DNA from: Escherichia coli
GTDB taxonomy: Bacteria > Pseudomonadota > Gammaproteobacteria > Enterobacterales > Enterobacteriaceae
Reading direction: 5' to 3' (one strand)
Length of the DNA: 64,000 bases
Assembly (NCBI RefSeq): GCF_045037415.1
Contig: NZ_CP173438.1
The position numbers were made by a program, and so were the translations under genes. This document shows positions 57,277 to 64,000 of the stretch, piece by piece. Positions within the stretch are counted from its first letter, which is position 1. Every line of letters starts with the position of its first letter. The notes below the pieces were generated by a model. It was given only the letters and a program-made list of their open reading frames with translations. It did not search any database and was not told the DNA's origin.

Positions 57277-59424
<2,148 letters not shown>

Positions 59425-59476: not shown

Positions 59477-60202
59477 TCAGAAAAGAGAAGATTGCTGTGG
59501 AATAGCCGGAACTGCTCCGATCTCTGGAAGCGTTTTACGTAAGTCTTCCCACAGGGTATGTACCAGTTCCGGGGCCTGGGCAATATCTGGCGTATGTAAA
59601 AAAAGATAAGGCGTAGTGGTCTGATGCCACTGCGCTAATTTTTGTAACCAGACCTGAAATAATTCCCGGTTTTGCGTCATATCATCACTACCGATAAAAC
59701 GGATCAGTGGATTTTTCGCCGTCAGTACAGCATGTACCGGAACTTTAGGTTTTTTTCGTTGAGCGTAGCGAATAGCTTCACTGTGTGGACGTGCTGCATG
59801 AACCGGGCGGCTGTCTAAAATCACCCGATTAACGCCGCGCTGATGTAAACCGCGATTAAGCGTTTGTTCCTCTTCCCCTTTGGCGAAAAACTGTGGATGG
59901 CGGACTTCCACACCATAATTAAATTCGCCGGGAAGAGAATCGAGAAAATGCCAAAGCGCAGGCAGCTCCCGTGGGCCGAATGTGGCAGGCAGTTGCAGCC
60001 AGTATTGTCCAATGCGCGGAGCCAACGGTGACATGCGGGTCAAAAATTCAGTCACTAAATCATCGCAATGCCGTAATGCTGCCTGATGCGAAATAGTCGC
60101 CGGAAACTTAAAACAGAAGCGGAAGTCATCTGTGGTCTGCTCACGCCAGCGCAGGACAACCTCGGGTTTCGGCAGGGCATAAAGCGTGGTGTTACCCTCC
60201 AC
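59477..60202 (-). CDS. yecE: YecE (DUF72), 5' end replaced by prophage B; no in-frame ATG, stop at 60260-60262 upstream in frame
   Basis: 241 codons from GTG at 60202 match YecE from ..VEGNTTLYALPK; the first roughly 30 codons of K-12 YecE (recalled length 272 aa) have no counterpart. Confidence 0.8.
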   Translation of the reverse strand: MEGNTTLYALPKPEVVLRWREQTTDDFRFCFKFPATISHQAALRHCDDLVTEFLTRMSPLAPRIGQYWLQLPATFGPRELPALWHFLDSLPGEFNYGVEVRHPQFFAKGEEEQTLNRGLHQRGVNRVILDSRPVHAARPHSEAIRYAQRKKPKVPVHAVLTAKNPLIRFIGSDDMTQNRELFQVWLQKLAQWHQTTTPYLFLHTPDIAQAPELVHTLWEDLRKTLPEIGAVPAIPQQSSLF

Positions 60203-60228
60203 ACAGTTAACATGACGGGTATTAAGGA

Positions 60229-61542
60229 TTAACTTACTGATTTTAATAAGCCTCTGGTGTCACTTTGGTGACTATGGGGCATCATTGGGACATAATCTGT
60301 CAGCTTCTGATTCAGCATTGCGATCTGTTCTGCATTGCTGTCAGTCATCCATGCTCCGTATACATTGAATACCATCTGGGCACTTGCATGGCCCATCTGG
60401 CTGGCAATGAAGCTTGGGTTTGCTCCGGCAGATAATGACCAGCACGCATAAGTGTGTCGTGACTGGTATGCCTTTCGATGCCTGATCCCTGCACGCTTAA
60501 TGGCTGTTTCCCATGAGTCACCTACAGAATCGACTTTGTAGACAAAACCTACCTGTTCGCTTTTTCTAACCACTTGAGGGTTAAACACGAAAGTACATTC
60601 ATGGTTCACTGAACGTCCATATTCACGTAGTTGCACCTTGATGTTGTACTGCTTACCCAGTCTTGTCATTTCAGCCTGATTTTTCAGGACACTGATAGCG
60701 GGCTGGATAAGGTGCACAACCCTGTTTGTGCTTGCTTCAGTTTTCGGTAGAGTGAACTCACCAAGTTTCGTATAATTGCGCCTGATGGTAATTGTTCCTG
60801 CCTTCAGATCGATATCTTCCCAGGCCAGGGAAACCAGTTCACCGTGACGCATTCCTGTGTACACAGCCAATGACCACAGGTTTTTCGTCTGCTGATGTCG
60901 GCAAGCATCTATCAGGCGAATAAATTCGTCACGAGTTAGCGGATCTGGCTCTGCCCTGGCTCTTTTAAGAGGCTTAATTCCCTGGAAGGGATTTGCTTCT
61001 AAGTAACCGTGATCTGCAGCAAACTGAAACATTCCAGCGATTGTCGTCATGTAATAATTTACAGTAACGACGCTCCGTCCTTTTGCTGCTGCTTTGTTTT
61101 TCGTTGAATTCTGATACCCGGTAAGCAAATCTTTCCTGATATACAGCAATTCCTCTTTGGTTACCGATGACACCAGTCTACTGCCTCCAATTTTCGGAAC
61201 CATCGTTCTTGCAACGGATTCATAGCGATTGAATGCATTTGCAGAGATTTCCATTCGTTTCAGATCCAGCCACTTTTCTTCAAGTTCCTTCACCGTAATT
61301 TCTTTTTTACTTACCCCAAAAGCCTGAAGGTTGGGGGAGTCAGGGAACTGTGCAGCATAATCAAAGCTTCCTGTGCGGATGGCAAAACATACTGATGTCC
61401 GCAGTTCCCCGGCGATCTTCCTGTTCTTGGCAGTGTCAGGGACACCAAGATTTTCCCTGACACGTTTACCTTTAAAATTAAACCAGATGCGTAATGTGCC
61501 GCCGTGGTTTTCGACGCCTGTTGGATATTTGACTTTATCCAT
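60229..61542 (-). CDS. int: phage integrase (tyrosine recombinase), 3' end abuts/overlaps yecE 5' region
   Basis: 437 aa; N-terminal arm-binding-like domain and C-terminal catalytic region with conserved R..H..R..Y context. Confidence 0.85.
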   Translation of the reverse strand: MDKVKYPTGVENHGGTLRIWFNFKGKRVRENLGVPDTAKNRKIAGELRTSVCFAIRTGSFDYAAQFPDSPNLQAFGVSKKEITVKELEEKWLDLKRMEISANAFNRYESVARTMVPKIGGSRLVSSVTKEELLYIRKDLLTGYQNSTKNKAAAKGRSVVTVNYYMTTIAGMFQFAADHGYLEANPFQGIKPLKRARAEPDPLTRDEFIRLIDACRHQQTKNLWSLAVYTGMRHGELVSLAWEDIDLKAGTITIRRNYTKLGEFTLPKTEASTNRVVHLIQPAISVLKNQAEMTRLGKQYNIKVQLREYGRSVNHECTFVFNPQVVRKSEQVGFVYKVDSVGDSWETAIKRAGIRHRKAYQSRHTYACWSLSAGANPSFIASQMGHASAQMVFNVYGAWMTDSNAEQIAMLNQKLTDYVPMMPHSHQSDTRGLLKSVS

Positions 61543-61597
61543 CGATACCTCCAGACGCCCAAGAGCGATACGAGCTTACATATTTCATGATATTAAA

Positions 61598-61834
61598 TCA
61601 CCTGGGTTGTTTGTTTTTCATTGAGGCGACCCAGGCATCTATTGCTTTTCTGTTATACATACATTCACTGGAAGGCTTTGGATTACCGTCTGGTGATACG
61701 TGAATATACTCTCTTCCAACCATCCAGCATTCTTTCCGGGCCCGAAGAATTGTGCCTGGTTTGAGCCCGGTAATTGCGATAAGAACGCTTTCACAAACCC
61801 ATTCATTGGGAGCCAGTTGAATCACATTGCCCAT
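61598..61834 (-). CDS. xis: putative excisionase
   Basis: 78 aa ORF immediately upstream of int. Confidence 0.55.
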   Translation of the reverse strand: MGNVIQLAPNEWVCESVLIAITGLKPGTILRARKECWMVGREYIHVSPDGNPKPSSECMYNRKAIDAWVASMKNKQPR

Positions 61835-61842
61835 GTATTACC

Positions 61843-61989
61843 TCACACAACACTCAGCCCACGGCAGTGGCAACACACTTCAAACATTCGCTTCACAACT
61901 TCACGACAGTAGAAGCCGTCAACATCTCGCGTCAGGTCATAGCGATTGCCGTAACGCTGGTGGACCCATCGTTCAAATGCTTTATTCAT
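61843..61989 (-). CDS. small Cys-rich protein (48 aa, CCHC cluster)
   Basis: Hand-translated; ATG 3 nt after upstream stop; below ORF-track cutoff. Confidence 0.4.
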   Translation of the reverse strand: MNKAFERWVHQRYGNRYDLTRDVDGFYCREVVKRMFEVCCHCRGLSVV

Positions 61990-61992
61990 TCT

Positions 61993-62235
61993 TTACTTCC
62001 TTTTTATGGCTCGTAATTTTTTCAGGTGCTTTTCCTGCTCAGTGTCCGCGAGAATTTTGCGGTACTCCTGGTGGTCAATATGTTCGAACAGGCAGTTTAA
62101 CTCACCAATGCGTACCCGCCCGGATCGTCCGTCCATCCGTCGAAAGAACACTGAGTGCTCAGTGATGCGAGTAATCACCACGGGGTATCCGGCTCTGTCC
62201 GTGTATATCTGACCGCGTTGAATCAAAGCGAACAT
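61993..62235 (-). CDS. hypothetical early protein (80 aa from ATG at 62235)
   Basis: ORF track 61993..62289 with internal ATG closely following upstream stop. Confidence 0.5.
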   Translation of the reverse strand: MFALIQRGQIYTDRAGYPVVITRITEHSVFFRRMDGRSGRVRIGELNCLFEHIDHQEYRKILADTEQEKHLKKLRAIKRK

Positions 62236-62239
62236 GTGG

Positions 62240-62323
62240 TTATCCCCAGCGGCAAATCGAATACACCACCAGCGCCACCGCCATCGCAATTCCTACCGTT
62301 GTTAATGCTTCAGGCCAGGTCAT
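62240..62323 (-). CDS. 27-aa hydrophobic peptide [27 protein letters not shown] (single predicted TM helix)
   Basis: Hand-translated; ATG overlaps upstream stop (ATGA); GGAGG 9 nt upstream. Confidence 0.4.
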
Positions 62324-62664
62324 CGTAAAATATCCTCCACGCTTATCAGTCCGTTCCGCTCCAGATAACTCATCGCCTTATCCGGTAATTTGCAGTCTGG
62401 CTTCGCTTTCCTCAGTTGCCAGGTTAACTGCTTTACCAGCATGGTTAACTCATCGACCAGACGCTGATATCCCACTGGTTTGTATTCATGCAATTTACCG
62501 GCTGGCTCTGCTACCAGCGATACCAGTGCGATTTCCAGAACAGCAATATCCATCTTATATGTGCGGATGATGTCATGGTCGATTGTGCCCGGTATGCACA
62601 GTCTCTGTGCTTCAATAGTCTCCTCTGCGTGAGCTATTAACTGCTCTCTGGTAAAAGTCGTCAT
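62320..62664 (-). CDS. hypothetical early protein (114 aa), divergent member of paralogous family
   Basis: ORF track; shares MTT.T.E start and ..IALVSL.AEP motif with the two paralogues upstream. Confidence 0.6.
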
Positions 62665-62827
62665 GCCGTAGCCCCTTCTTGATATTTTTCAAACCAGAAC
62701 ACAACCGGCTCTGCTTCCAGCGATACCAGCGCAATCCGTGCCAGTTCCATTTGTTCACCACGGGTAAGCCCGTTTTCAAGCGGATTTTTAATGAACAATT
62801 CAATACGTTCTTTGGTAATAGTGGTCA
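62660..62827 (-). CDS. 55-aa protein [44 protein letters not shown]..., stand-alone copy of the N-terminal module of the 136-aa paralogue
   Basis: Hand-translated; AGGAG RBS; ATGA overlap with downstream gene. Confidence 0.5.
62700..62827. repeat. copy 1 of about 125-bp imperfect direct repeat (about 88 percent identical to 63388-63514)
   Basis: Aligned by eye. Confidence 0.7.
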
Positions 62828-62838
62828 TGTGTTACTCC

Positions 62839-63102
62839 TTAACCCGCAGTGCTTTCAACTGATGAGGGGAACAAAATCTTTTCATCAAACCCTGCATTCA
62901 TATCATGGACAGCAACACACCAATCCATTGACGAACGATTATCAAGAGCCTCCATGATTTCATCCATGCGGCGCAGGTCATACAGGTAAATGCTTTTATC
63001 GCCAATGGTGTAAAAACCAATTTTTTTCGGTGATGGGCAGCGATCAAGAACGTCCTGTAATTCGTTCAACCATGCCCGTTCTTTTTTTGTTAAAGTTGCC
63101 AT
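62839..63102 (-). CDS. hypothetical early protein (87 aa from ATG at 63102)
   Basis: ORF track 62839..63213; internal ATG with AAGGAGAGTGA RBS just after upstream stop. Confidence 0.5.
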   Translation of the reverse strand: MATLTKKERAWLNELQDVLDRCPSPKKIGFYTIGDKSIYLYDLRRMDEIMEALDNRSSMDWCVAVHDMNAGFDEKILFPSSVESTAG

Positions 63103-63103
63103 A

Positions 63104-63514
63104 TCACTCTCCTTTCCCATGAAGCATAGCGGCGCGGCAGGCGTTCCAGCCTGTAGCGTATGCAGCCGCTTTGCTGCTGCCTTCAACTGGCGCATCCTGC
63201 CAATACATTTCATCCGGCACTACCGGCGCTGGCAAGGCAGCGTGATAGTAGAGTGGCATAGTTTTGTACAGTGGTTCGCCAGGACTTCCGTCAACCTGAT
63301 TCCATTCTTCAACCCAGGCATCAACAACCGCTTTGCTGGTTGATACATGTTCTTCTGAATCTACATTTTGTCCTGATATACAGAACATAACTGCCTCTGC
63401 TTCCAGCGATGCCAGAGCAATTCGTGCCAGTTCCATTTGTTCGCCACGAGTAAGTCCGTTATCAAGCGGATTTTTAATGAATAATTTGATACGTTCTTTG
63501 GTTATAGCGTTCAT
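63104..63514 (-). CDS. hypothetical early protein (136 aa), N-terminal module [40 protein letters not shown]
   Basis: ORF track 63104..63556; ATG at 63514 with AAGGAGAGTGA RBS. Confidence 0.55.
   Translation of the reverse strand: MNAITKERIKLFIKNPLDNGLTRGEQMELARIALASLEAEAVMFCISGQNVDSEEHVSTSKAVVDAWVEEWNQVDGSPGEPLYKTMPLYYHAALPAPVVPDEMYWQDAPVEGSSKAAAYATGWNACRAAMLHGKGE
63388..63514. repeat. copy 2 of about 125-bp imperfect direct repeat
   Basis: Aligned by eye. Confidence 0.7.
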
Positions 63515-63515
63515 C

Positions 63516-63881
63516 TCACTCTCCTTTGATGCGAATGCCAGTAGCGCGGATTGCATCGATGACTTCAGAAACTTTGTATGCCATTACCGTTTGGTAATCA
63601 TCGTGAAAATCTGTTCGATGAAGCATGCTGCTACGTTCCGGGAGCGATATTTCCCGAGCATCCAGTTCCTTAACGCGCTCCTCCAGTTCGTAGACCCTGC
63701 ATTGTTCTCTATCATCAATCAGATATAACCCAAGACATTCGCTTTCTACCCAACCGCCAAAATCATGATCGTAACGCTCACATGAAAACTCACCGTCACC
63801 GTCCTTTGTTGGAATGGTGTAACTATCTAATGGGCCACCATATGTCGGCACATTTCCCAATGTTGGATGCTCAATCCACAT
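63516..63881 (-). CDS. hypothetical early protein (121 aa)
   Basis: ORF track. Confidence 0.5.
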   Translation of the reverse strand: MWIEHPTLGNVPTYGGPLDSYTIPTKDGDGEFSCERYDHDFGGWVESECLGLYLIDDREQCRVYELEERVKELDAREISLPERSSMLHRTDFHDDYQTVMAYKVSEVIDAIRATGIRIKGE

Positions 63882-64000
63882 GAAAAATGCACGTCCGGTT
63901 ATTGGGCAAATATCTGGCCGCCATTGGTTACGAACAGCCTTGGTTTCGGATAATTCTTCAGCGTGTTGTTTTACTTCCTCAAGCTCAACTCTCAGCTTCC

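Follow-up and report, generated by a model that had tools for sequence, protein, structure and literature searches.

Insertion of a putative phiP27-type lambdoid prophage at codons 29-31 of yecE in Escherichia coli

The stretch of Escherichia coli DNA analyzed here (64,000 nucleotides of contig NZ_CP173438.1, assembly GCF_045037415.1; the window) contains, with a probability of about 0.93, the int-proximal junction of a phiP27-type lambdoid prophage located at its normal attachment site, codons 29-31 of yecE. Int-mediated site-specific recombination best accounts for the insertion, with strand exchange approximately 90 bases into yecE, within the segment TTAACTG. The gene is thereby split: codons 1-28 and the start codon stay 51 kb away beside yecD, as seen in the genome of strain Ecol_AZ146, and codons ~32-272 lie immediately after int in the same orientation. 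Neither a replacement start codon nor an N-terminus is supplied to this remnant by the phage. Since 2002, yecE has counted as a textbook site of integration for Stx phages and other lambdoid phages, and phiP27-type integration there is real but ordinary and already well documented. The features to which the text refers are the following.

57277-58248, minus strand: cmoB, downstream; context
58245-58988, minus strand: cmoA, downstream of yecN; context
59029-59424, minus strand: yecN; context, not part of the element
59477-60203, minus strand: 3' part of yecE, bacterial DNA; codons 30-272 and the stop, the third base of codon 31 being 60203
60199-60219, minus strand: 21-bp imperfect att core CCCGTCATGTTAACTGTGTGG, with 3 mismatches to attB CCCGCCACTTTAACTGTGTGG
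60200-60202, minus strand: GTG, native Val32; first ATG, GTG or TTG in the yecE frame after the upstream stop
60204-60210, minus strand: 7-bp overlap (crossover) segment TTAACTG, identical in attB, both prophage junctions and the reconstructed attP
60211-64000, no strand assigned: int-proximal 3.8 kb of the prophage (int, xis and small early-left genes), continuing past the right end of the window
60229-61542, minus strand: integrase of 437 aa (PF12167 and PF00589), stop TAA at 60231-60229
60245-60247, minus strand: ATT, RefSeq/PGAP start of the 256-aa 'DUF72 domain-containing protein' WP_042040108.1
60260-60262, minus strand: TGA closing the yecE frame upstream, in phage DNA within the 3' end of int
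61598-61834, minus strand: excisionase (xis) of 78 aa, RefSeq 'excisionase family protein'; the DNA aligns with phiP27 L02 'putative excisionase'

The native state of the gene can be seen at two unoccupied loci (L001 and L002), where the gene order is aspS / yecD-yecE-yecN-cmoA-cmoB / torZ. Native yecE is 819 nt long and encodes 272 aa, and its ATG overlaps the stop codon of yecD (ATGA). Orthologues of 272 aa that cover the whole query are found in Citrobacter, Salmonella, Klebsiella, Enterobacter, Kosakonia, Cronobacter, Cedecea and other genera. The translation of the window remnant equals native YecE from N30 onward (compared with L001, WP_000639277.1; the locus is otherwise 100% identical). 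The alignment with an unoccupied locus, suggested in an earlier note on this DNA, thus defines the core and yields a native gene of 272 codons that does not start at 60202. A natural start at GTG 60202, which would leave the gene intact and place the whole prophage upstream of it, between yecD and yecE, would agree with this GTG being the first canonical start in the frame and with the deposition of a 241-aa version on at least 1,000 contigs. However, the unoccupied loci and the full-length orthologues refute such a start. Residues 1-31 are in addition conserved down to 33% identity, and the first 85-92 nt of yecE sit at the other end of the prophage. We give this alternative next to no probability.

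The position of the exchange is fixed by comparing three sites in the sense of yecE. attB reads GCCCGCCACT TTAACTG TGTGGAGGG, the window junction reads ACCCGTCATG TTAACTG TGTGGAGGG, and the far junction, taken from Ecol_AZ146, reads GCCCGCCACT TTAACTG CGTGATACGG; in short form, the sites are CACT-TTAACTG-TGTGG, CATG-TTAACTG-TGTGG on the int side and CACT-TTAACTG-CGTGA at the far side. The flanks are swapped around TTAACTG, which shows a reciprocal site-specific crossover within this segment. In the window, DNA up to 60203 is bacterial and DNA from 60211 onward is phage-derived, with the overlap (60204-60210) between them. In the free phage CharmingMan, the two phage arms adjoin without interruption, confirming the reconstruction of attP. 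Homology to the unoccupied locus ends at ~60210-60222 (~4,900 genomes), and the 21-bp core has a single match in the window, with 0 expected from shuffled sequences; this shared end of homology and the uniqueness of the core argue against a chance pattern. The proposal of the earlier note that the prophage is inserted inside the 5' end of yecE is therefore borne out by the three-way comparison, with the first ~28-31 codons replaced by phage DNA.

Lambda Int/Xis recombination exchanges attP (POP') and attB (BOB') across a 7-bp overlap. In attB of yecE, the overlap is surrounded by the inverted repeat CCGCCAC-N9-GTGGAGG, whose arms, following the lambda paradigm, are candidate core-binding sites of Int. 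Repeated 9-12-mers in the reconstructed attP arms were too few to be proposed as arm-type sites. Several other candidates at the site were rejected. No further copy of the yecE core turned up in the window, whether as an attB within Prophage A or elsewhere, the junction itself being the only match; an attB copy within another prophage has precedent (PMC8112680). An alternative att site at a tRNA gene was discarded, as no tRNA genes were found anywhere in the window. A scar allele, considered from homology matches ending after 811 or 823 bases, was also rejected because L001 and L002 are identical at the core, and the difference is an effect of BLAST extension. A lambda sib-like hairpin or terminator in the P' arm folded no better than shuffled sequences (z = 0.36; L005:8350-8470), and a terminator scan of the same segment of the arm found none.

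The far junction lies outside the window, and both this junction and the complete extent of the prophage were observed only in a proxy genome, NZ_CP018991.1 (E. coli Ecol_AZ146). This genome matches window positions 1-49927 with 0 mismatches and two 1-bp gaps, and has 1 mismatch in 7.3 kb around the junction. In NZ_CP018991.1, a yecE 5' pseudogene of 105 nt comes after yecD, together with the reciprocal junction. The stretch from one copy of the overlap to the other measures 51,058 bp, which in terms of the proxy genome places the far junction ~47 kb beyond position 64000. The other end of the prophage, which the earlier note had left to be located, is thus found beside yecD in a near-identical genome, beyond the window. 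The Ecol_AZ146 prophage has a full lambdoid gene set (repressor region, replication, Q, lysis, terminase, head, tail and tail fibres), and its 51-kb annotation lists no Shiga toxin genes. At the int-distal end, a SLATT-domain gene is followed by a reverse-transcriptase gene (NZ_CP018991.1 525096-526995; L005 9097-10996), a pair that may be a defence-type RT system, and a frameshifted dinI-like gene adjoins the far junction. Between Q and the lysis genes lie genes for a DUF262 protein, a HEPN-like nuclease and a DNA cytosine methyltransferase (NZ_CP018991.1 557550-560408; L004 31551-34409), which look like accessory or defence cargo.

Judged from its sequence, the integrase is a predicted lambda-type heterobivalent tyrosine recombinase. 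It combines an arm-DNA-binding domain (PF12167, Arm-DNA-bind_2, residues 7-70, E=2.4e-23) with a catalytic domain (PF00589, residues 202-395, E=1.2e-17), and the motifs TGMRHGE, SRHT and GH...NVYGAW were recognized by eye in the translation. The gene ends 10 bp short of the 21-bp core, so the integrase is unaltered by integration. The catalytic and arm-binding domains, the adjacent xis and the duplicated overlap with reciprocal junctions together make up a lambda-type integration module. The likeness to lambda extends to the 7-bp overlap, the imperfect inverted core sites and the conservative reciprocal exchange. Conversely, attB of lambda is intergenic (gal-bio), whereas the target here lies within a protein-coding gene; unlike lambda, Int ends only 10 bp from the core and the P' arm shows no sib-like structure. 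The phage also carries no duplicate of the displaced yecE end.

Among known phages, the Stx2e phage phiP27 (AJ298298 / NC_003356) shares with the window the gene order att, int (437 aa) and xis and the target yecE at the identical nucleotide position, with 94.9% nt identity over 1,699 bp of int-xis-att. The attL given in its GenBank record (1-11) maps exactly to window 60200-60210. The repeated core of phiP27 is given as 11 bp, whereas here the exact identity of the junctions is limited to 7 bp by a T/C difference at the eighth base. The comparison concerns the integration module; the phiP27 genome is 42.6 kb long, and the proxy prophage is 51 kb without annotated stx. These facts on phiP27, which is integrated in yecE, were taken from its GenBank annotation and a review (PMC8065619) that cites Recktenwald and Schmidt (2002). 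By its int and att sequences and by the position of insertion, the module in the window is assigned to the phiP27-type yecE-integrating phages. A closer relative is PhiR49_2 (PV340570.1, from ECOR13; 41 kb), whose int, xis and att are 99.8% identical to the window at the nucleotide level and whose record begins at window 60198, at the att core.

The same target position in yecE is also used by phage 297 and by the 'PPyecE' Stx1a, Stx2a and Stx2d phages of O145:H28, O26 and O80 (AJ431361, LC5678xx; PMC8112680, PMC9751135). The 19-bp att core of phage 297 (AJ431361) corresponds to window 60200-60218, and the architecture is as in the window, with int immediately upstream of the truncated yecE. 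However, the integrase of these phages belongs to a different lineage (428 aa, 73% nt identity to the window int), and the phage-derived peptide fused to yecE differs between phi297-type and window-type junctions (IEPDSEIISLNIS... versus IKISKLILNT...). These phages commonly carry stx, whereas none is annotated in the 51-kb proxy prophage, of which the window holds the first 3.8 kb. In the literature, yecE is listed among the classical Stx-phage insertion sites (PMC8065619), attL/R sites of 21 bp at yecE and the inducibility of yecE prophages have been described (PMC8112680), and laboratory transduction of an Stx2d phage led to integration into yecE (PMC9751135). Of 5,426 complete E. coli genomes, 4,903 retain the whole attB span and the native yecE of 272 codons and 523 lack an intact span, and a junction like that of the window is present in 489 (~9%), which puts the occupancy of yecE at about 9-10%; the two megablast queries, for phiP27-type and phi297-type lysogens, cross-match near the 3' end of int, so the counts for the two types are not separable and 489 and 523 are reliable as totals only.

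In the window, translation of the yecE remnant would need GTG 60202 or ATT 60247. The earlier note had described a yecE frame without an ATG upstream of 60202 and closed by a stop at 60260-60262, and this description holds: after the TGA at 60262-60260, none of the 19 codons from 60259 to 60203 (HQRLIKISKLILNTRHVNC) is ATG, GTG or TTG. It had also placed the integrase stop (60229) within the first codons of yecE; the position of the stop is right, but the DNA at that point is phage DNA that merely stands in place of codon ~23. A start at GTG 60202-60200 (VEGNTTLYALPK...) would give 241 codons up to the stop at 59477, and direct reading revealed no Shine-Dalgarno-like sequence upstream of this GTG. 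The suggestion of the earlier note that yecE is left with at best an internal GTG start is a fair one, the only alternative being the ATT at 60247-60245 chosen by PGAP. AGAGG is found 3 nt upstream of this ATT, which is non-canonical and probably an annotation convenience. PGAP starts the truncated yecE at ATT in phiP27-type lysogens (256 aa) and at ATA in phi297-type lysogens (265 aa), and sets no pseudogene flag on the prophage-truncated gene. Both starts are regarded as annotation artefacts. Exact copies of the remnant 'proteins' are present on at least 1,000 public contigs for the 256-aa version and on at least 1,000 for the 241-aa version.

The consequences for the protein can be predicted from what is removed. 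Residues 1-31 are nearly invariant across enterobacterial orthologues of YecE, and W9, W14, L22 and Y25 make up 4 of the 10 invariant columns in an alignment of 71 DUF72 proteins with 33-83% identity to E. coli YecE. In an AlphaFold model of YecE (pLDDT 95.1, pTM 0.92), the N-terminal segment contains a strand (3-6) and two helices (12-17 and 22-26), and among crystal structures the DUF72 TIM barrels 1ztv, 1vpy and 1vpq match the model. An input of 14 close orthologues was unusable (mean pLDDT 63.9, residues 1-42 below 50), and the 71-sequence alignment was used instead. Native YecE matches PF01904 over residues 21-249, and its sequence aligns to PDB 1vpy from residue 1. The copy in the window is without residues 1-28, carries F29V and does not encode a complete DUF72 TIM barrel; it is a fragment of a YecE/DUF72 (PF01904) member and not an intact member. 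With beta1 and 4 of the 10 DUF72-invariant TIM-barrel residues lost, and with neither a start codon nor a homologous N-terminus provided by the phage, the predicted product of the remnant is most likely non-functional, be it translated from GTG 60202 or from ATT 60247, both of them weak starts. As to the function that would be lost, the papers searched yielded one proposal for the family: a computational study of the DUF72 protein Tm1631 suggests that it binds DNA and has a site resembling that of endonuclease IV (PMC3828134).

A truncated or hybrid YecE might nevertheless still be made and be functional, with translation beginning at ATT 60247, at GTG 60202 or by re-initiation 27 nt past the int stop on transcripts that read through from int. 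The frame is open from 60259, the 241 codons of the remnant are still open and undecayed in 4 of the 4 lysogens inspected, and PGAP calls a CDS. A scan of the minus strand from int to cmoA found no consensus promoter or terminator, a result that says only that there is no obvious terminator; with no terminator-like site between int and the remnant, read-through transcription is possible. However, the starts that the annotation pipeline picked, ATT (phiP27-type) and ATA (phi297-type), are non-canonical, no N-terminal peptide is common to both phage families, and the product would be without the barrel elements named above. The undecayed reading frame is equally expected from recent or reversible insertions, with which its state in the four lysogens fits. 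A functional hybrid product is accordingly considered very improbable, and a disrupted, non-functional yecE is the preferred reading.

Whether this disruption is permanent depends on the state of the prophage. The element could be a fixed, defective remnant, so that yecE would be lost for good in the lineage. The proxy prophage has a frameshift in the tail-tip gene J (gpJ), owing to which it may not make infectious particles, and several of its genes are partial. Decayed yecE prophages also exist elsewhere: in some genomes, for example NZ_CP144710.1 (L013 3156-3269), yecE is cut ~35 bp further in (~window 60168) and fused to the prophage gene bet, with int and xis absent, an arrangement that suggests a decayed yecE prophage in which a deletion extends out of the phage into yecE. 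Against a fixed remnant stand an intact int (437 aa) and xis, the exact 7-bp overlap and the core at both junctions, and the retention of the full 51-kb lambdoid gene set; moreover, an int/att module with 99.8% identity has been deposited as a phage, PhiR49_2. Permanent loss is therefore judged unlikely, while keeping some weight. Under the preferred reading of an insertion at the normal attachment site, the conservative exchange and the intact int, xis and junctions mean that excision by Int and Xis across the 7-bp overlap should restore yecE exactly, as expected from the mechanism.

Two further observations concern the rest of the window. Prophage A (~1-22,640) adjoins yecA, according to the annotation of NZ_CP018991.1 (612991-635665), and contains a Q antiterminator, holins, terminase, lambda-like head genes and P2-like contractile tail genes. 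Between cheR and tar (~42,955-43,106), the proxy annotation gives a 152-nt frameshifted 'Tar ligand binding domain' pseudogene. In K-12, this place is taken by tap. As only the 152-nt pseudogene lies between cheR and tar, the chemoreceptor gene tap appears to be deleted or decayed in the source strain.

A more far-reaching interpretation is that the yecE prophage acts as a reversible switch ("active lysogeny"), with YecE turned off on integration and back on after precise excision. On this view, two distinct integrase lineages would have converged on the 21-bp core owing to an advantage that the phage or the lysogen gains from the loss of YecE or from the separation of yecE-yecN from yecD. As an alternative, read-through from int and re-initiation at GTG 60202 could yield a truncated YecE with altered function. 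Such an interpretation is highly speculative and we consider it a long shot.

The exact anatomy of the insertion is now fixed, with the 7-bp overlap at 60204-60210 and the loss of codons 1-28, including conserved elements of the barrel. The disruption is hidden by the ATT and ATA starts in RefSeq, and gene-presence and pan-genome analyses can be misled. The neighbouring genes are also affected in their arrangement: yecN and the downstream genes cmoA and cmoB are on the same strand as yecE, with gaps of 52 and 40 bp, and are now split by the prophage from yecD and its upstream region. In lysogens, yecE, yecN and possibly cmoAB are thus uncoupled from yecD, which could matter if a function of YecE is established.
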